Shown piece after piece: positions 154 through 37,985 of a stretch of DNA of 39,841 bases. The notes beneath the pieces were generated by a model that saw only the letters and a program-made list of their open reading frames with translations, was not told the DNA's origin and made no database searches. The stretch's first letter is position 1. Each line of letters starts with the position of its first letter. A program made the translations under genes and the position numbers. This DNA comes from a virus (lineage: Duplodnaviria; Heunggongvirae; Uroviricota; Caudoviricetes), in IMG/VR virus record IMGVR_UViG_2711768002_000004. The stretch is one strand, 5' to 3'.

Positions 154-560
154 GTAAGCGTGCAGCAAGAACCGTATTGACGGGAATGTGTTATTCAGTC
201 GGCAGTGCTACGCGCCAGGGGAGCAGTTCGCCGACCCGGTTTATCGGCCAGTCGGCTATGACGTCAAGGACATAGCGGAGGTAGCTTTCTGGCTCCACTC
301 CGTTCAGTTTGCACGTCCCGATCAGGCTGTACAGCAGCGCTCCCCGCTCTCCTCCATGATCCGAACCGAAGAACAGGTAGTTTTTGCGGCCCAGACTGAC
401 CATCCGCAACGCATTTTCAGCGATGTTATTGTCCGCCTCAGCCCAGCCATCATCTGCATAGTACGTCAGCGCCGGCCACTGGTTCAGGGCGTATGCGAAC
501 GCTTTCGCCAGTTCTGAGTGTCGCGACAGGGTTTTCATCTTTTCACGCAGCCAGCTTTCC
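154..560 (-). mobile_element. IS66-family insertion sequence, right-hand portion (terminal repeat region plus 3' part of tnpC), cut by the N gap
   Basis: tnpC C-terminal reading frame at 191-560; GTAAGCG motif at 154-160, which I recall as the typical IS66-family terminus (from memory, not verified). Confidence 0.65.
191..560 (-). CDS. tnpC: IS66-family transposase TnpC, C-terminal fragment (frame stays open up to the gap)
   Basis: Translation MKTLSRHSELAKAFAYALNQW...DNNIAENALR...GRKNYLFFGSDHGGERGALLYSLIGTCKLNGVEPESYLRYVLDVIADWPINRVGELLPW matches the conserved C-terminus of IS66 TnpC as I recall it; N-terminal ~400 aa absent from the window. Confidence 0.85.
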
Positions 561-690: not shown

Positions 691-1428
691 TCATTCACTC
701 TCTTTCAAACCAGTTTTAACTGTTTGTGGTTTTGGGTAAGGCTGGACTTTGAATAGCTTTGTGTTAAGGCGTTTTCTGGCTCTCTTGTCCAGAAACCGGA
801 TGTAACGAAACTGACGGAATTTATGAACACTGGCTCTGTCGATATTAGCCCGCAGATGTTCACCTCGCTGTCCTCCTCGTTTGATTGCATTCTTGCAAAT
901 CTCGTGATACCACTCGCCATCAAGTTCATAGAATGTTGTTTCATGACTGCCTACATAATCAAAATTGCTTGCCTGGTACACGACACCAAGACAGCCACAA
1001 CGCTCATCTGCAAACGACTGAACCCACTGCACCTGCGGATAAAGTTGTCTGATTAGTTTGAGCGCGTAACTGATTGCCCTTGATTCGGAGTTTCTCGGCA
1101 TACAGTCATGCAGCCATAACCGGTTAAGCTCCATATATTCGCGGTTCTGCGTGCCAGTTACGACGCGTGCACCATTGTTTGGATTAAGGGCATAACCCCA
1201 TTGCATTACGCCAACCAGCTCCCGTTCTGAAAATATGCCCAGATGAAGGTAGGAATTATTTACGAAACGATGGCTGTAATGTTTATTGACGACGACCAGC
1301 CGGGCCAGCCAGCAACTTATTGTCTCAACCCGTAACTCACGGGAGCCATAACCGACGATATTGTCGTTATAGTGAATAAGTTCAGGCGTGCTGATGATAC
1401 GGGATGTAACTTGCTTTCTGTTCCCCAC
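691..1428 (-). CDS. mom: Mom-like DNA modification protein (start uncertain; GTG at 1428 with AAGGAAA upstream proposed)
   Basis: Long ORF 691-1623 overlaps com in another frame; gene position and the com overlap mirror Mu com-mom. No in-frame ATG downstream of com until far inside the ORF, so an alternative start is inferred. Confidence 0.65.
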
Positions 1429-1582
1429 GACAGGATTTCCTTGTGTATGTGGGGTGCTCTGTGGCGCTCTGAGATGTGATTTGATTGAGGGTTTTACAGC
1501 GCGGACATTTAACTTCCAGATAACTGAAGCTGGCTCGTGCCAGTAGCTTGTTACAATGTCGGCACCGTATGTTTCGATACAT
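1382..1582 (-). CDS. com: Com-like zinc-finger translational activator of mom
   Basis: [34 protein letters not shown]... has the CxxC-(17)-CxxC zinc finger and N-terminal pattern of Mu Com. Start moved to ATG at 1582 (AGGAGG 10 nt upstream); the ORF track start at 1627 is a TTG. Confidence 0.8.
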
Positions 1583-1624
1583 GGCCGCATAACCTCCTGC
1601 TTTGTTGTTGATATCTTTATCACT

Positions 1625-1720
1625 CAATCGATCGACAAAAACGATCGATTTGATTTATTTAATTGATACAACAAATAACACGAAATGTCATTAGCGAAAA
1701 TTTATGAGTTTGATCACTAA
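1625..1720 (-). promoter_or_regulatory. Putative com/mom promoter-regulatory region with clustered GATC (Dam) sites
   Basis: GATC at 1630-1633 and 1643-1646 (13 bp apart) and 1712-1715 in an AT-rich region just upstream of com; in Mu the mom promoter is controlled through upstream Dam sites and OxyR. Confidence 0.4.
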
Positions 1721-1838
1721 TTTTAAACGGTGCTGTAACGCATAAGTGCTGAATGATTGTACATTTGAATACCGCAAAGCAAACAAATCAACTAATTTAT
1801 AGAAGTCAATTGGTTAATTGCCAGCGTAAGAGGCTGCT

Positions 1839-2132
1839 ATGGACAATCATGTAACGACGAGAAATCGAAAAATGATTGAAAATGCGGAAATCTATAATGA
1901 TTATTTTTCCGATTATTCAGATGCCTGCAAATACAGTTCGAGTGCGGGAGAGTTCATATGCTTCAACTTTTTTATTAAATCTTATGTTTTTCCTCCACAG
2001 CAAGAAGATGGAGGTGTGCCACCTCCTGAAATCACTTTGCACCGTATAGCCTCCGTCTCAATGATGGAGCAACAGGCTAATGAGCTGTATAGCATTCTGG
2101 GAACGATTCTACAAAAGCGTGAATCGGACTAA
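1839..2132 (+). CDS. Hypothetical protein (97 aa), plus strand, divergent from com
   Basis: ORF with AAGAGG 7 nt upstream of ATG; AT-rich; no recognisable motif. Confidence 0.3.
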   Translation: MDNHVTTRNRKMIENAEIYNDYFSDYSDACKYSSSAGEFICFNFFIKSYVFPPQQEDGGVPPPEITLHRIASVSMMEQQANELYSILGTILQKRESD

Positions 2133-2299
2133 TGATACCGGTTCATTTGCCTGCCCGGATGGGGAAGCAGGATTGACTGCTCCATAAGCAGCTATATTTC
2201 TGAATACGAAATACTATCCAGCGATTACATATGGCTGGATAGCGGCAAAGATGTTTTCATTAGTGTCAAACCGGCAGAGGACACCACCGGTTTGTATTG

Positions 2300-2554
2300 T
2301 TACATCATGGTACTGTCAGTTCCGGGCTGAGCCGGGTCTGGTTGCTCTGGCTGCGCGTCGGTTTTCGGCTCATTATCAGCATCACTGGCCGCAACTGCTG
2401 GCCCAATAAGTTTTGCCAGCACTTCATCAACGTAAGTGTCGATTTGTGCCTCAAAATCCTTGCGGACCTGCGCTTTCAGCAACTTATTTACTTCACCGGA
2501 ATACAGTGCCTGTTTTACCAGGTCTTCAGTGACGGTGCCTTTAATTTCTGGCAT
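2300..2554 (-). CDS. Hypothetical protein (84 aa), acidic/Pro-rich C-terminus
   Basis: ORF with strong AAGGAGG Shine-Dalgarno upstream of ATG at 2554; part of the cargo locus between gin and com. Confidence 0.55.
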   Translation of the reverse strand: MPEIKGTVTEDLVKQALYSGEVNKLLKAQVRKDFEAQIDTYVDEVLAKLIGPAVAASDADNEPKTDAQPEQPDPAQPGTDSTMM

Positions 2555-2589
2555 GTATATCCTCCTTATGCGGGAATAAAGCCCTGCAA

Positions 2590-2772
2590 TCAGGGCTGGG
2601 TCGGGTCTTTTGGGAGCGGAGTTACCTGCGCTGTTTTACTGAGTTTTTCAGCTGCTGCGTCCTCAATTTTGCGGCGAACATAATTTCTGATGGCCTTATA
2701 ACCACCACTCACCAGATATAACGCACATACTGCCGTGCAGAAATACAATAAAATAAGCTGTAAAAATGTCAT
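2590..2772 (-). CDS. Small membrane protein (60 aa, one predicted TM helix)
   Basis: MTFLQLILLYFCTAVCALYLVSGGYKAIRNYVRRK...; start moved to ATG at 2772 preceded by GGGAGGG. Confidence 0.55.
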   Translation of the reverse strand: MTFLQLILLYFCTAVCALYLVSGGYKAIRNYVRRKIEDAAAEKLSKTAQVTPLPKDPTQP

Positions 2773-2787
2773 TATCCCTCCCAATTA

Positions 2788-2814
2788 TTGACATGGTGTT
2801 GACACCGGTAATAT
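2788..2814 (+). promoter_or_regulatory. Candidate sigma70-like promoter / direct TTGACA repeat
   Basis: TTGACA at 2788-2793 and 2799-2804, TAATAT at 2809-2814 (15-bp spacer from the first hexamer). Suboptimal spacing; could equally be a regulator binding site. Confidence 0.3.
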
Positions 2815-2868
2815 CTGTTAGGTAAAAAGGTGCACTGCATTTTTTGCTTTGGATATAACGATCTTTTT

Positions 2869-2910
2869 GCCGCCGGTTTCTTGTTTTCCCTTACCGGCGG
2901 CATTTTTTTA
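2869..2910 (+). terminator. Rho-independent terminator (9-bp GC stem, 15-nt loop, 7-U tail on plus strand)
   Basis: GCCGCCGGT...ACCGGCGGC followed by ATTTTTTT; lies 7 bp beyond the esterase stop. On the minus strand the hairpin is followed by AAAAAG, so only plus-strand termination looks canonical. Confidence 0.6.
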
Positions 2911-2916
2911 TCCTGC

Positions 2917-4971
2917 TTACGCGTTATTCACTTCCACCACGATACTGTCAATCAGTACCGGGTAAGTCGCATTTTTAGTGATATCGGTCACGCGCAACTT
3001 GTCTGCCGTAAACGTGCCGACCGGAGACTGCGACAGCATGAATGGTGTCCCGTCCTTACCATCAATGACCGGCGTCACCTCAATACTGTTGTTACCGGCA
3101 AAACGGAAGCCCAGCGTATGCCATTCGTTATTAAATGCGCCGAATGACCCCAGCTTCGTGTTCTGCGCCGTGTTTCCTTTGTGATACATCACGTTAAGGT
3201 CTGTGGCATCGCTCTGTACGTAGAACGATGCCAGCAGGTTATGACCGGCATTTCCTTCCAGAGTAACCCCTTGCGGCAGGGCAGAAACCGGCCAGTACAG
3301 CGCCAGTGCGTACTGATTAGCCGTAAGCGCGCCATCGAGTTTAAAACGACAACTGACAAGACCACCTTTACCCAGCAGGTCCGCACCATTACCAGCATCA
3401 TGCTCAAGGTACCAGGGGGCTCTTCCTGTTTCCTTGGTCAGTTTCATTGCCTTACCCCCGCTGGCTCCGGCATCATCCACGATTTGAGCCTTGCCACCTC
3501 CGGCAGCCCAACCCTGTGGTGTCAACCGTCCTTCAGACTCAGATGCCCGGTAAGCAAATAGCGTACTCATCGTCGTGGTGTCTGCGGGTGGCGTGGACGG
3601 TTTTGATGGTGTATCAGGTGACGGCTTCTCATCCGGTGGTGTCACGGTCTGCCCACGCATCAGTTCAGCCGTGCGCCCTGCATGGAGCATAATAGCTGAG
3701 GCCAGACGGTCTGAAATGACGCCCCTGCGTGCCCATGAGCTGAAATGGCTGTCACGCTGTGTCGAAACAAAACTGCCCTGGGTTCGGGATGCTGCACCGT
3801 AATACCCGACAGCCACAATATCCGGGTCTTCCGCCGGAGCATTCGTTGGCGTGCTCTGTCCATTCTCATCCGTCAGGAACGGTACAAAGAAAATTTTCTG
3901 TGCTTCCTTGCCTTTGTAGCCACCGTATACTGCCTCATATTTATCGGTGCCAGCGTTTTTCCAGTAATACGTGGTATCACCGCAAATCCACGGCACCGTG
4001 GTGGCATTTCCACTCACGCACTGCGCAGCAAGCGGAGCCAGGTCAGTTCTGAACTGCTGAACCATGGCCGTGAATAAACTATTATGCTGCTGGCTTCCTG
4101 AGGCAAGGTCTGCCTCTCCCTGCATCCAGACCACAGCCAGAAGTTTGTTTTTCGGGTTTTTCGCCAGCGCGACTTTGGTGCGGCTTACCAGGTCCTGATA
4201 CAGAGGTTTACCGGCCCCCCAGCGTGAAGAATCAGCGGAAGCACCGCTGGCCTCACTGAATGAGCCGTCGGCTCCAGTGGTGAATGCTGACCCGCCACGA
4301 CAACAGGGCACCAGAAGTATCCCGGCATTCTGTGGGATATAGGGAAGCAGTTTTTTGGCAATATGCAACCCCTGACCGACAGTCCCGTACTGGCCTTTTG
4401 CCAGATCAGCTTTCGGGTGGTTTATCCCGCTCATATCCTGAACATCATGCAGGCAGTGGTCTGCCGGAATGATGTCGTTGTATGTACACGACGTACCGTT
4501 GGGCGTTACCGTACTGCGGCGTGCCAGTTGCTTAATGCGTGGGTCCGGGCGGTCAAACGAATCCGGTAACGGCAGCCCCTCGCCGTAGGCCATGCCATTT
4601 GACTGACCCGCGAGAATGACAACAAAGTAATATTCCGGCTCTGAACTGCTGCCATTCGTGCTACCGGAAGGCCCGGCGTTATCCGGTGCATTCCAGTCGG
4701 AGGGCGTGAGCGTTCCGGCCACGTCAGATGTGATTGGAATGATGCCAGTCACGCCTGAACTGGTGATTTCTGCACTGGGATTACCGGATACCGGCATTAC
4801 CCATAATGGCTCTTTCGTGCTGAAGCGGATCACGCAGTCTGCGAAGGTGATCCCCCCTTTATTACCCGAAGGGCGGAAAGGGCTTTCAATAAATGCCACC
4901 GTGCCACCGGCAACCTTGACTGAAAACTCTCCGGGCATGGCGGAGAGCATTTTCCACTTGGAGTCTGACAT
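2917..4971 (-). CDS. Large cargo protein (684 aa) with SGNH / sialate-O-acetylesterase-like (DUF303-type) esterase motifs; putative carbohydrate O-acetyl esterase
   Basis: Motifs YFVVILAGQSNGMAYGEG (GQSN block) and AVVWMQGEAD (QGE block) recalled as typical of the family; Ser/Thr/Pro-rich linker and Gly-rich C-terminal ~250 aa. Sits where Mu has no gene (between gin and com). Confidence 0.6.
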   Translation of the reverse strand: MSDSKWKMLSAMPGEFSVKVAGGTVAFIESPFRPSGNKGGITFADCVIRFSTKEPLWVMPVSGNPSAEITSSGVTGIIPITSDVAGTLTPSDWNAPDNAGPSGSTNGSSSEPEYYFVVILAGQSNGMAYGEGLPLPDSFDRPDPRIKQLARRSTVTPNGTSCTYNDIIPADHCLHDVQDMSGINHPKADLAKGQYGTVGQGLHIAKKLLPYIPQNAGILLVPCCRGGSAFTTGADGSFSEASGASADSSRWGAGKPLYQDLVSRTKVALAKNPKNKLLAVVWMQGEADLASGSQQHNSLFTAMVQQFRTDLAPLAAQCVSGNATTVPWICGDTTYYWKNAGTDKYEAVYGGYKGKEAQKIFFVPFLTDENGQSTPTNAPAEDPDIVAVGYYGAASRTQGSFVSTQRDSHFSSWARRGVISDRLASAIMLHAGRTAELMRGQTVTPPDEKPSPDTPSKPSTPPADTTTMSTLFAYRASESEGRLTPQGWAAGGGKAQIVDDAGASGGKAMKLTKETGRAPWYLEHDAGNGADLLGKGGLVSCRFKLDGALTANQYALALYWPVSALPQGVTLEGNAGHNLLASFYVQSDATDLNVMYHKGNTAQNTKLGSFGAFNNEWHTLGFRFAGNNSIEVTPVIDGKDGTPFMLSQSPVGTFTADKLRVTDITKNATYPVLIDSIVVEVNNA

Positions 4972-5056: not shown

Positions 5057-5629
5057 TCACGGTACTTTTGGTGACGGAGCTGGTGAGGCAGGAAAATAAC
5101 GATAAAGGGTGGAAAGGCCAATATCAAATATCAGTGCGATTTGTTTACGGGACTCGCCATTAGCCAGCAAACGGGCGATTTGCTCCCGCTCTTTCTCTGT
5201 CAGTTTCTGAGGTCTGCCGCCATGACGCCCCTGAGCACGGGCAGCAGCAAGACCCGCGCGTGTACGTTCAATAATGAGTTCCCGCTCCATTTCCGCCAGC
5301 GCGCCCATTATATGGAAAAAGAAACGTCCCATGGGAGTGGATGTATCAATATTGTCCGTAATGCTGCGGAAGTTAACGCCGCGTTGCCGGAGTTCTTCTG
5401 TTAAAAGGACAAGGTGCTGCATACTGCGTCCAAGGCGATCCAGTTTCCAGACCAGCAGGGTATCCCCTGGCCGGAGTCGCTTTAATGCGCGTTTAAGTCC
5501 GGGACGCTCCCTTGTCTTACCGCTTATTCTGTCTTCGAAAAACAGCTCACATCCTGCACATTCCAGCGCATTTCTTTGTAGCGCCGTATTCTGGTCATTT
5601 GTTGACACCCTGATATACCCAATCAGCAT
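5057..5629 (-). CDS. gin: Serine recombinase DNA invertase (Gin/Hin/Pin/Cin family)
   Basis: MLIGYIRVSTNDQNTALQ...VWKLDRLGRSMQHL...MGRFFFHIMGALAEMERELIIERT...STLYRYF: catalytic Ser region and C-terminal HTH of the Gin family; adjacent to the invertible tail-fibre segment. Confidence 0.9.
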   Translation of the reverse strand: MLIGYIRVSTNDQNTALQRNALECAGCELFFEDRISGKTRERPGLKRALKRLRPGDTLLVWKLDRLGRSMQHLVLLTEELRQRGVNFRSITDNIDTSTPMGRFFFHIMGALAEMERELIIERTRAGLAAARAQGRHGGRPQKLTEKEREQIARLLANGESRKQIALIFDIGLSTLYRYFPASPAPSPKVP

Positions 5630-35897: not shown

Positions 35898-37985
35898 TCA
35901 GGCCAGCGGATCACTTTCTTTTAATTTCGCTTCGAGCAGTTGCAATCCCCGCTGGAAATTACGCTCGTATTCTTCATCAGGTTCATCGTCAGCGACCGGT
36001 TGCTGAACGGTCACCGTATTACCCACAGGGCGGTATATGTTTTCCAGCCAGGGCTCCTGCGGCTTGTGCTCCAGCACGTTGACAACCTCATCCTCGGCAT
36101 CACGGATTTTTTCCTCTGCGCGTTTACGCATGCCTTTAAGGCGCTGCTGCTGTTTGTAGTATTCCGCGCTGACAGGGAAGGCTTCGCGTTTATTGCCGTC
36201 CCATACCGCCTCGCAAATCACGCTGCCATCCGGGCGGCGCACGGTAATTCGTTCGGCATCATGAATGTCATAGCTGATAAGTACCTTACGGCCATGCTCG
36301 TCACGCAGCTCGGGCGCGTAGTAAATATTATTCAGCCAGCGTATTTCACAGCGTCTTACAGGGCGCTCCACCATCGGCCGGAACATATCCCGCAGTTCAA
36401 CATCGGACAGCCATTCAATTTCCGTGTCCTCTTCCGCCAGGCGTTTTTTTCTGAACTCCGCCGGGCTGTAATGTTTACCGTTCGGCTTCATGGGTAATTC
36501 ATCGTGCGGCCGGTTGTTGTACCACTCAACACCGTCACGAATGGCATCAATCAGTTCAGACCAGGACGGTAAATCACGCATCGCTGACTGCTGCCGGGCG
36601 TTCAGCCGTTTGCCCTGTTGCAGGGCACTGAATGCCGAGCGTAAATCGCGGTTGGTTTTACGTAACGTCTCGCGATCTGCTCCTTTCCCGAAATAGGTGC
36701 GGTATTTACGGGCTATGCGCATCGGTAATGTGCGGTTAAGCCGTTCGATAATGCCCCGTCCCTGCGGATTACCGGCAATCCCTGTCGGGTGATTAATCCC
36801 CAGTCGTGGCAGTATCCCCACAATCTCCTTATCCAGGACGTCGGCGGTTTCCCCGGAGCCATTATCCGAGTAATACAGAAACGGTTTGCCATGATGGCGA
36901 ATACCGTGCTGTATGGCACCGGCTACGGCGAAAACATTTTCAGCCAGGTCAAGGCTCCAGCCCACCACAAAGCGCGTGCCACCGTCGATAACAAAGGTCA
37001 CTTCCGGTGCGAATGGCCGCCCGTGAACCGGGTGCGCGCATTTCAGCTTCATGCCGTGACCGTCACCAATCCAGACATAATTCACCGGCATTCTGGACCA
37101 GTCGCGGCGCGTGAATCCCTCAAGCTGACGGTATTCACTGCCAGTTACCCGGCCTTTTTGTTTCACCACTTCCGGCAGTTTCTTCATTGCGCGGCGAATG
37201 GTGTCATAAGAGGGCATGATATCGAGCATATAAGGCTCATCAGCGTGCCGGTGCTGCCATTCAGCAACAAAATCCTCGTAAGCCTCGGTCATTGGTCGGC
37301 CGTTTGACTGGCGATACTGCGCCAGAAATTCGGGCAGCCAGTTAATATCTTCGGCTTTTATTTCCTGGCGTTTACCCGGTGCCAGTAAAAGCAGGCGTTC
37401 AGCGGCGTTCTGTGCCTTGTTAAAGGCCGCAATCCAGCGTTTCAGCGTGATTTCACTCAACGCGCGGCTGTTTCCCTTTTTGGCGTTCGCCGTCTCAACC
37501 ATTGCCACAATGCGCTCGTCCAGTTGTGATCGTGCCAGGCTGTTAACGAGGAACCGGATAGCTTTAGCGCAGCTGAAACCGGGTTGTTGCGTGAATTTCA
37601 GCACCTCACTGACGATCGCAATGCGTGCGTCTGCCACCTGGCGCTGGTTTTCAGTCAGGGCATTGAGGCGTTCGACCATCAGTTGTGGTGATCCGCGATA
37701 TGCCTCCACCGCATCAACCACGGCAGACGAGCGTCTGGCCTTTGTCACCACCGGAGCCGGTGATTCATCGGCTTTTTGCGTCATCAGTTGCAGGGCATAA
37801 CGTTCGCGTAATGCCTGCTGTGTCACTTCAGGTAAACAGTCAATGCTGTATTCAAAACCTTTAGCGCCTTTCTTGCGGCGTCTGCTGGTTTCGCTGGTTG
37901 CATACTTCCTGATTGAATAGCGAACGCCTTGCTCCGTTCCCGGCATCCCCGGTAATCCAACCAGTTCTTTAACTGAAGCAAACAT
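35898..37985 (-). CDS. A: DDE transposase (MuA-like)
   Basis: 695 aa; N-terminal VSPKE..LPG-like opening (ASVKELVGLPGMPGT) and position directly after ner. Confidence 0.9.
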   Translation of the reverse strand: MFASVKELVGLPGMPGTEQGVRYSIRKYATSETSRRRKKGAKGFEYSIDCLPEVTQQALRERYALQLMTQKADESPAPVVTKARRSSAVVDAVEAYRGSPQLMVERLNALTENQRQVADARIAIVSEVLKFTQQPGFSCAKAIRFLVNSLARSQLDERIVAMVETANAKKGNSRALSEITLKRWIAAFNKAQNAAERLLLLAPGKRQEIKAEDINWLPEFLAQYRQSNGRPMTEAYEDFVAEWQHRHADEPYMLDIMPSYDTIRRAMKKLPEVVKQKGRVTGSEYRQLEGFTRRDWSRMPVNYVWIGDGHGMKLKCAHPVHGRPFAPEVTFVIDGGTRFVVGWSLDLAENVFAVAGAIQHGIRHHGKPFLYYSDNGSGETADVLDKEIVGILPRLGINHPTGIAGNPQGRGIIERLNRTLPMRIARKYRTYFGKGADRETLRKTNRDLRSAFSALQQGKRLNARQQSAMRDLPSWSELIDAIRDGVEWYNNRPHDELPMKPNGKHYSPAEFRKKRLAEEDTEIEWLSDVELRDMFRPMVERPVRRCEIRWLNNIYYAPELRDEHGRKVLISYDIHDAERITVRRPDGSVICEAVWDGNKREAFPVSAEYYKQQQRLKGMRKRAEEKIRDAEDEVVNVLEHKPQEPWLENIYRPVGNTVTVQQPVADDEPDEEYERNFQRGLQLLEAKLKESDPLA

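Follow-up and report, generated by a model that had tools for sequence, protein, structure and literature searches.

Genomic setting of the unit

The analysed window, 39,841 nt in length, corresponds to a complete Mu-like prophage. Its genes, among them transposase genes (34.9–38.0 kb), a gin-type invertase gene (5057–5629) and com/mom (691–1627), are encoded on the − strand. Between gin and com/mom sits a block of three further − strand genes, which encode a SASA/DUF6645 (NanS-p-like) carbohydrate esterase (2917–4971), a small DUF1378 membrane protein (2590–2772; ATG at 2772, with the ribosome binding site GGGAGG just upstream) and a DUF826 protein (2300–2554). A + strand ORF (1839–2132), annotated as a hypothetical protein at about 1872–2132, lies upstream of the unit described here. 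Lambdoid and Stx-type prophages have this block and its spacer too, in their late region immediately upstream of the gene for holin.

The unit lies on the + strand in the spacer between the esterase gene, its convergent neighbour, and the DUF1378 gene, its divergent neighbour. An earlier reading made from the sequence only had placed it between these two genes and antisense to their intergenic region, and our gene map bears this out. The synteny and orientation of the unit are common to lambdoid and Mu-like prophages. Seven nucleotides separate the end of its U tail from the esterase stop codon, and the complementarity of the predicted RNA is confined to the untranslated spacer, from 63 to 137 nt upstream of the DUF1378 AUG and from 8 to 82 nt past the esterase stop.

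Sequence anatomy

The tandem TTGACA repeat, the TAATAT element and the perfect 9-bp GC hairpin with a 7-U tail reported by the sequence-only reading are all present on the + strand. The two TTGACA hexamers are at 2788–2793 and 2799–2804, in a register of 11 bp, and TAATAT, which had been taken as the −10 element, is at 2809–2814. The hairpin occupies 2868–2902. Its 5′ arm GCCGCCGGT (2869–2877) and 3′ arm ACCGGCGGC (2893–2901) form 9 perfect pairs, or 10 if T2868–A2902 is counted, around a loop of 15 nt with the conserved core CUUGUUUUCCCU. Seven T residues (2903–2909) follow directly after A2902, and 2868–2909 as a whole has the form of a Rho-independent terminator. The hairpin begins 54 nt past TAATAT, not about 60 nt as had been given. 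The statement that the unit contains no ATG is correct for the transcribed part (2821–2910) and incorrect for 2788–2910, since an ATG (2793–2795) lies inside the first repeat.

Chance does not explain the double TTGACA, the hairpin or the fold. TTGACA-N5-TTGACA with no more than one mismatch occurs once in the window against 0.13 expected, and at least one occurrence was found in 11 of 100 shuffled sequences. The hairpin is the sole instance, on both strands of the 39.8-kb window, of a perfect GC-rich stem that has 9 bp or more, a loop of no more than 20 nt and a T-rich tail, and only 1 of 200 shuffles gave any hairpin of that quality. Folding of the predicted 75-nt RNA gave −23 kcal/mol (z = −4.6).

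A generic promoter and terminator scan called neither a promoter nor a hairpin on the + strand here. The scan requires a spacer of 16–18, A2 and T6 in the −10 hexamer, and a loop of 8 or less, and it passed over both elements because of these limits on spacer length, −10 composition and loop size. Two + strand ORFs overlapping the unit (2830–3147 and 2849–2965) were dismissed, since neither has a ribosome binding site and both read across the terminator.

On the − strand the hairpin is followed by the A-rich sequence AAAAAG and by no U run. The hairpin would therefore terminate transcription of the + strand only and leave the esterase transcript unterminated, which speaks against the proposal that the unit is a transcriptional insulator.

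The order of elements in the predicted RNA matches the architecture of Hfq-dependent (class I type) sRNAs, with the U-rich tract UCUUUUU (2862–2868) directly 5′ of the terminator, the hairpin at 2868–2902 and U7 at 2903–2909. A U-rich stretch, a terminator and a U tail of at least six U are reportedly, from the work of Otaka in 2011 and of Ishikawa in 2012, the classical Hfq-binding module.

Homology with EcOnc33

The tables of a catalogue of Hfq-crosslinked orphan RNAs from E. coli O157:H7 Sakai (Tree et al. 2014, Mol Cell 55:199, PMC4104026) include EcOnc33, whose northern probe is AAATGTCGTTATATCCAAAGCAAAACATGCAGGAC (Table S3C). The reverse complement of this probe matched exactly once in the Sakai Sp6 region examined (L005:3240–3274, − strand), between ECs_1527 (9-O-acetyl-neuraminic acid deacetylase) and ECs_1528 (DUF1378) and antisense to both. 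In Table S2 of the same catalogue, EcOnc33 has an Hfq CRAC peak in 5 of 5 passes, a predicted Rho-independent terminator, a large peak area and a northern band of about 71 nt, and its Hfq-peak signal is among the larger ones in the rows examined. These data belong to the O157 homologue, and they uphold the proposal of the sequence-only reading that a small RNA gene is present at this position.

BLAST of window 2780–2916 against the Sakai Sp6 locus gave 80.6% identity over 132 nt (E = 5e-25), and in the allele alignment the two are 81.5% identical over 168 aligned columns. The probe match and the homology together make the window unit a diverged allele of an experimentally detected small RNA, and by sequence, synteny, orientation and terminator the unit belongs to the EcOnc33 group. 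A covariance model built for EcOnc33 (R1) gave the window 87 bits, a score to be read with the window sequence being part of the training set. Both units lie between a NanS-p-type esterase gene and a DUF1378 gene, antisense, and they share (at about 81% identity) the −35 hexamer with N18 and TAAAAA, the 5′ CUGCAU..UUUUGCUUUGGAU, the stem GCCGCCGG/CCGGCGGC and the U tail.

The two alleles differ in several respects. The window element is Mu-like, with the unit between gin and com/mom, whereas in Sakai it is in a lambdoid late region upstream of the holin gene. Position 7 of the 5′ region (U2841) is U in the window and G in Sakai. In the window the linker is 2 nt longer, the loop has 15 instead of 24 nt and a further U-A pair extends the stem, and only the window allele has both the first TTGACA and TAATAT in consensus form. 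EcOnc33 has no Rfam family, and RefSeq has nothing annotated at the locus. In the literature searched we found no functional study of EcOnc33 and none of any prophage sRNA acting on arcA.

Copies of the locus were found in 355 of 5,426 complete E. coli genomes (about 6.5%), of which 21 have the exact window allele and about 327 the O157-type allele. Strains with the exact window allele include JE86-ST05, FORC_069 and DLI.5a. A scan of viral contigs gave 42 loci, with only these two common alleles. Against phage genomes, megablast gave no match, and the matches of a more distant search were mostly to the esterase gene. An exact 18-mer scan of one genome per species gave 20 matches, all in unrelated taxa, and these are not homologues, as about 17 were expected by chance. 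At least for the exact core sequence, the family looks confined to prophages of Escherichia and Shigella.

Altogether, lambdoid and Mu-like prophages yielded 11 distinct alleles of the EcOnc33 type. The second TTGACA, the N18 spacer, TAAAAA (TAAAAC in the L076 allele), CTGCAT, TTTTGCTTT, GAT, both stem arms and the T run are kept across all 11, while differences occur in the linker joining the 5′ region to the stem and in the length of the loop (15–24 nt) around its conserved core. Among 9 alleles, variation is limited to 2 of the 20 columns of the 5′ region, compared with roughly 9 of 14 columns in the adjoining linker. This 5′ region, CUGCAUUUUUUGCUUUGGAU (2835–2854), predicted to be single-stranded, is the best-conserved part outside the stem in these alignments and is likely to be the seed. 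Position 7 of the putative seed is G, U or a 1-nt deletion in the other alleles. The 8 core pairs of the stem are 100% paired in the 9 alleles; a single G-C pair has become G-U, and compensatory changes are absent. Since the stem is practically invariant, covariation is uninformative here and lends no support to the hairpin.

Comparison with other known sRNAs

PasA and PasC are prophage sRNAs of EPEC (Pearl Mizrahi et al. 2021, PMC8550237; Zhu, Shabalina and Storz 2026 preprint, 10.64898/2026.05.13.724894), and their EHEC homologues are EcOnc51 and EcOnc52. Their genes also lie antisense between a sialic-acid esterase gene and lysis genes and end in a terminator with a U tract, and the 3′ end of PasC, like that of the window unit, abuts the esterase stop codon. 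The Mu-like window has no lysis genes, but DUF1378 and DUF826 are present. PasA and PasC are 79–85 nt long, with a large-loop GC terminator, a U tail and Hfq-dependent stability, and they have a TTGACA −35 element at the same distance from the 5′ CUGC as in the window. The RNA bodies and terminator stems, however, are unrelated in sequence to those of the window unit. With the E2348/69 PasA or PasC sequence as blastn query, which is the membership criterion of Zhu et al., blastn-short (word size 7) gave only chance matches of 9–14 nt elsewhere in the window and none at 2780–2916. The PasA seed GCCAGCACCU, which lies in the 5′ arm of its terminator, is absent from the window unit, whose stem is GCCGCCGGU. 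Conversely, the EcOnc33 model R1 did not recover PasA or PasC, and it scored no higher than 11 bits (E = 0.9), for the PasC-like unit nearby. The shared slot, orientation, promoter frame, size and architecture make PasA and PasC positional and architectural analogues of the window unit, and possibly the window unit is a very distant relative of them.

At gathering thresholds, Rfam gave no match in the whole window. The only alignment at the locus in a permissive search of 1 kb was to Esr41 (RF02676; EcOnc14), with 22.2 bits (E = 0.13) against a gathering threshold of 102 and with most of the score coming from the terminator and U tail, and membership of this family was rejected. Esr41 resembles the window unit as an Hfq-dependent prophage-island sRNA of about 70 nt with a U-rich stretch and a GC terminator containing CGCCGGC, but it differs in genomic context. 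AgvB and AsxR (RF02702, RF02703) are also Hfq-binding sRNAs whose convergent genes lie in the same moron region of Stx-type prophages. They lie, however, 3′ of stx, on the opposite flank of the esterase gene, and are 51–60 nt long. The window does not contain their conserved 3′ core of about 42 nt (GUAUCUCAUGC..GCCCGAACCC), even with 3 mismatches allowed, and neither family gave an Rfam match, so a relationship with them was rejected as well.

Putative promoter elements and the 5′ end

TAATAT lies 15 nt past the first TTGACA and 4 nt past the second, so it has no canonical spacer with either hexamer. Among the other aligned alleles, the first TTGACA of the window is TTGATA or TTGGCA, or is removed by an 11-bp deletion (L076), and TAATAT is TAATAC or TAATGC in every other allele, without the final T. 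In contrast, TTGAC of the second hexamer is invariant, and its sixth base nearly so, in 12 of 12 aligned cassettes, which include PasA, PasC and the unrelated L071 unit. Hence, of the promoter proposed by the sequence-only reading, the second TTGACA is conserved, while the first TTGACA and TAATAT are not. The conserved hexamer (2799–2804) is followed after 18 nt by TAAAAA (2823–2828), a weak −10-like element, and this arrangement is kept across the alleles (TAAAAC in L076). Similar geometry occurs elsewhere, as TTGACT-N18-TAAAAA in L071 and with GAAAAA or CAGAAA in the PasA and PasC units, and a similar tandem, TTGATA-N5-TTGACA, precedes the PasC-like unit of E2348/69.

Six nucleotides past TAAAAA are A2834 and C2835, and a start there would be 30 nt past the −35 hexamer. 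A distance of 30 nt from the −35 hexamer to A2834 is the canonical one between a −35 element and the start site. The TTGACA-to-CUGC distance is equal in the window allele, PasA and PasC, and the window CUGC aligns with the 5′ ends (CUGCC) of PasA and PasC, which in EPEC E2348/69 come from RNA-seq coverage and northern size. The alignment of the cassettes thus favours the second TTGACA as the −35 element (P2), a start near 2834–2835 and an RNA of about 75 nt (2835–2909), predicted from homology, folding and the aligned 5′ CUGC. This is close to the EcOnc33 band of about 71 nt, and shorter than the 90 nt or so that had been proposed.

P2 combines a perfect −35 hexamer and an 18-nt spacer with a −10 element, TAAAAA, that has no T6. 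The upstream combination of the first TTGACA and TAATAT (P1) has good hexamers and a 15-nt spacer, and it may be an additional promoter peculiar to the window allele, with a start near 2821 and an RNA of about 89 nt. The predicted 5′ end accordingly has a range of about −14 to +2 nt around 2835. In the Sakai data seen, Hfq and CLASH reads extend to the equivalents of window 2826–2828, 6–9 nt upstream of the P2 start. For this comparison, the offset between the old and new Sakai records was exactly 141 nt at Sp6, from two CLASH reads of exact length, and about 136–139 at Sp5 and Sp9. Because reads reach this far, the true 5′ end may lie further upstream and the 71-nt species may result from processing. 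It has been suggested that mature PasA, too, may be cut from a longer precursor (Zhu et al., 10.64898/2026.05.13.724894).

Putative mode of action and candidate targets

We consider it probable, at roughly 0.7, that 2799–2909 on the + strand is a self-contained EcOnc33-type prophage sRNA gene which is expressed and acts in trans through its 5′ 20 nt. In the proposed mechanism, sigma-70 RNA polymerase would start near A2834/C2835 from TTGACA (2799–2804) and the weak TAAAAA element (2823–2828), and in the window allele a second start near 2821, from TTGACA (2788)-15-TAATAT, may add the form of about 89 nt. Transcription would stop at the GC hairpin and U7 (2868–2909), 7 nt before the convergent esterase stop codon. 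The product of about 75 nt would carry a single-stranded 5′ region followed by the U-rich tract, terminator and U tail of an Hfq-binding module. Made from the lysogen, this sRNA would use its conserved 5′ 20 nt to pair in trans with host mRNAs at their translation-initiation regions. The architecture of the Hfq module, the conservation of the 5′ 20 nt and the CLASH hybrids of the O157 homologue make Hfq-assisted trans repression of host mRNAs the most likely mode of action.

The best-supported candidate target in the O157 data is arcA. In the RNase E CLASH data of O157 (Waters et al. 2017, Table EV7), the EcOnc33 interaction with the highest score is between CCUGCAUGUUUUGCUUUGGAU and AUUUAGGUAGCAAACAUGCAGACC, and the latter is a segment of ECs5359, which is arcA, covering its Shine-Dalgarno sequence and AUG. 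This hybrid, from which the arcA link is drawn, has 5 reads in that one supplementary table, appears in replicates and in both orientations, overlaps an Hfq site and has an FDR of 2.7e-4 (Waters et al. 2017). Pairing over the Shine-Dalgarno sequence and AUG of arcA would predict translational repression. A second hybrid in the CLASH rows examined also uses the 5′ region of EcOnc33 and maps inside dps (2 reads, FDR 0.0065). Most of the EcOnc33 rows examined are single reads involving the GC-rich stem, and these may be noise.

A duplex of about 19 bp is predicted with the arcA start region, at −22.4 kcal/mol for Sakai and −17.5 kcal/mol for the window allele. Shuffled 5′ regions gave a mean of about −12, and 0.8% (Sakai) and 2.2% (window) of them were as good. 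The U in place of G at seed position 7 unpairs C-1 of arcA, which costs about 5 kcal/mol. From these models arcA is a plausible target, with weaker pairing for the window allele.

Alternative explanations

The sequence-only reading had proposed a cis-antisense regulator. The sRNA would then pair with the esterase-DUF1378 spacer and bring about cleavage by RNase III or RNase E, or it would interfere through convergent transcription, which we consider unlikely, as we do the expected outcome that expression of the esterase and of the downstream small proteins would be uncoupled or reduced. In favour of this idea, the RNA is, by position alone, complementary to the sense spacer over its full length, and its gene converges on that of the esterase, with a 3′ end 7 nt from the stop codon. 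In EPEC, moreover, RIL-seq links PasA, which is in the same slot, to two esterase mRNAs (E2348C_0688 and E2348C_1246) at their 3′ ends. But the overlap touches no ribosome binding site or coding sequence. Lying 63–137 nt upstream of the DUF1378 AUG, it cannot mask the ribosome binding site, which leaves only cleavage of the duplex or transcriptional interference. The parts of the CLASH supplementary files covered by a text search contain no hybrid of EcOnc33 with ECs1527 or ECs1528, although they contain hybrids with core-genome mRNAs. The late operon is probably silent in uninduced cultures, so this absence is weak evidence, and a cis effect could occur at induction. Unrelated sRNA bodies (L071, PasA, PasC) also occupy the slot beside similar flanking genes, a pattern more in keeping with interchangeable cargo that acts in trans than with a device adapted to its own locus, and the conserved part of the RNA is the very 5′ 20 nt seen in trans hybrids. 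Pairing with the spacer would still be compatible with a trans role, to which a cis or near-cis role could be secondary.

It is highly unlikely, in our judgement, that the cassette is an inert passenger, which came with the esterase-DUF1378-DUF826 block from a lambdoid late region and is silent or without targets here. The whole block is about 85% identical to that of lambdoid prophages, with an intergenic region no better conserved than the coding flanks, the seed differs from that of Sakai at the position pairing with arcA, and the conserved −10 element is weak. Against this, the −35 element, stem and U tail are intact in 11 of 11 alleles despite substitutions in the linker, the window allele has gained matches to consensus (the first TTGACA, TAATAT and the extra U-A stem pair), and 21 complete genomes of unrelated origin retain this allele unchanged.

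That the hairpin only stops + strand read-through, for example from the ORF at 1839–2132, and shields the esterase gene from antisense transcription, with the TTGACA repeat being a chance match or a protein-binding site instead of a promoter, agrees with the presence of that upstream ORF and with the consensus scan having called no promoter, but is scarcely tenable, since the same hairpin and upstream elements occur in lambdoid prophages with no upstream + strand gene, Sakai makes a discrete RNA of about 71 nt, and the −35 element is invariant at a fixed distance from the RNA 5′ end in four cassette types.

A possible exchangeable sRNA slot

Prophage-encoded Hfq sRNAs, such as AgvB, AsxR, Esr41, the Pas sRNAs and StxS, rewire regulation in pathogenic E. 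coli. EcOnc33 is already known as a prophage sRNA of this kind, experimentally detected in O157. A modest addition to this is the divergent allele in a Mu-like prophage, with which the family reaches Mu-like prophages of non-O157 strains. Also new are the at least 11 alleles, which define a conserved promoter frame and putative seed, and the arcA lead, drawn from published CLASH supplementary data.

The proposed trans-acting EcOnc33-type sRNA gene may be combined with the findings on its neighbours into a wider reading, which we hold only tentatively and regard as doubtful in its full form. NanS-p-type esterase genes would be followed directly by a slot with exchangeable sRNAs, and the EcOnc33-type occupant of this slot would silence translation of arcA, and perhaps of dps. 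If so, a fixed promoter frame (of the form TTGACA-N18-[T/G/C]A[A/G]AAA), together with a terminator abutting the esterase stop codon, would hold at least four unrelated bodies (EcOnc33-type, L071-type, PasA and PasC), and the slot would move with the esterase block between lambdoid and Mu-like phages. The prophage would then retune the aerobic/anaerobic programme of its host through arcA, a global redox regulator, with the seed variants at position 7 (G, U or deletion) setting the strength of arcA repression.

As for annotation, the 355 genomes found here mean that this position has an sRNA gene missing from the annotation in about 6.5% of complete E. coli genomes.

Transfer of the esterase-sRNA block

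Our comparison showed that the esterase gene, the EcOnc33-type sRNA gene, DUF1378 and DUF826 form a block (2300–4971, minus strand; compared with L005, the Sakai Sp6 region, at 1249–3823) which is ~85% identical between lambdoid late regions and Mu-like prophages. In lambdoid late regions the block precedes the holin gene, and in Mu-like prophages it sits between gin and com/mom. The block has therefore been transferred as a single unit between unrelated phage types.

Placing the published EcOnc sRNAs on the current Sakai record, NC_002695.2, requires a coordinate shift. The coordinates given in Tree 2014 and Waters 2017 refer to an older Sakai record, and they are 141 nt lower than those of NC_002695.2 at Sp6 and about 136–139 nt lower at Sp5 and Sp9.

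Other units in the same slot

The slot between the esterase gene and DUF1378 was found to be filled by a different sRNA-like cassette in other Mu-like prophages, as in the comparison loci L071 (3287–3431) and L077 (3356–3421), on the plus strand in both. This cassette, carried by E. coli JE86-ST02 and by Stx2c phage LC727881 within its Mu-like insert, has the promoter frame TTGACT-N18-TAAAAA, an unrelated body, and a terminator of its own (CCCGCCAGTCAA...TTGACCGGCGGG, then T7). The cassette was present in 22 out of 5426 complete E. coli genomes, and a search of it against Rfam gave no match. Both cassettes, the L071 type and the EcOnc33 type, were found in JE86-ST05, one each in two separate prophages.

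In prophage PP2 of E. coli E2348/69 (comparison locus L003), a second, PasC-like unit (2465–2590, minus strand) lies directly 3′ of PasA. It has a TTGATA-N5-TTGACA tandem, GAAAAA, and a terminator consisting of GCCAGCG/CGCTGGC with a T-run, and the unit as a whole ends at the esterase stop codon. The "minor" PasA form of 236 nt has a 3′ end that coincides with this unit. Because its tandem −35-like repeat is similar to that of the window, the repeat may be a regulatory feature common to the two.

Terminator loop of the EcOnc33-type RNA

The terminator loop (2878–2892, plus strand) has the core CUUGUUUUCCCU, which is C/U-rich, contains an anti-Shine-Dalgarno-like UCCC, and is kept in all EcOnc33-type alleles despite indels that alter the loop length. 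The core was also found in several CLASH hybrids, each represented by a single read. It might serve as a second surface for pairing or protein binding.

Other observations

A weak match to the EcOnc33 covariance model falls within the transposase region (37105–37187, plus strand; 17 bits, E = 0.02). The stem of the hairpin there is imperfect and its T tail is poor, and this is probably a chance match.

A fragment of an IS66-family transposase occupies 191–538 (minus strand). After it, a stretch of N at ~540–700 breaks the sequence beside the mom end of the prophage. In the Mom/Com region (691–1627, minus strand), the Mom ORF is 310 aa long from a GTG start, and the RefSeq annotation of the identical region gives ~235 aa. 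The Com gene of JE86-ST05 is flagged as frameshifted.
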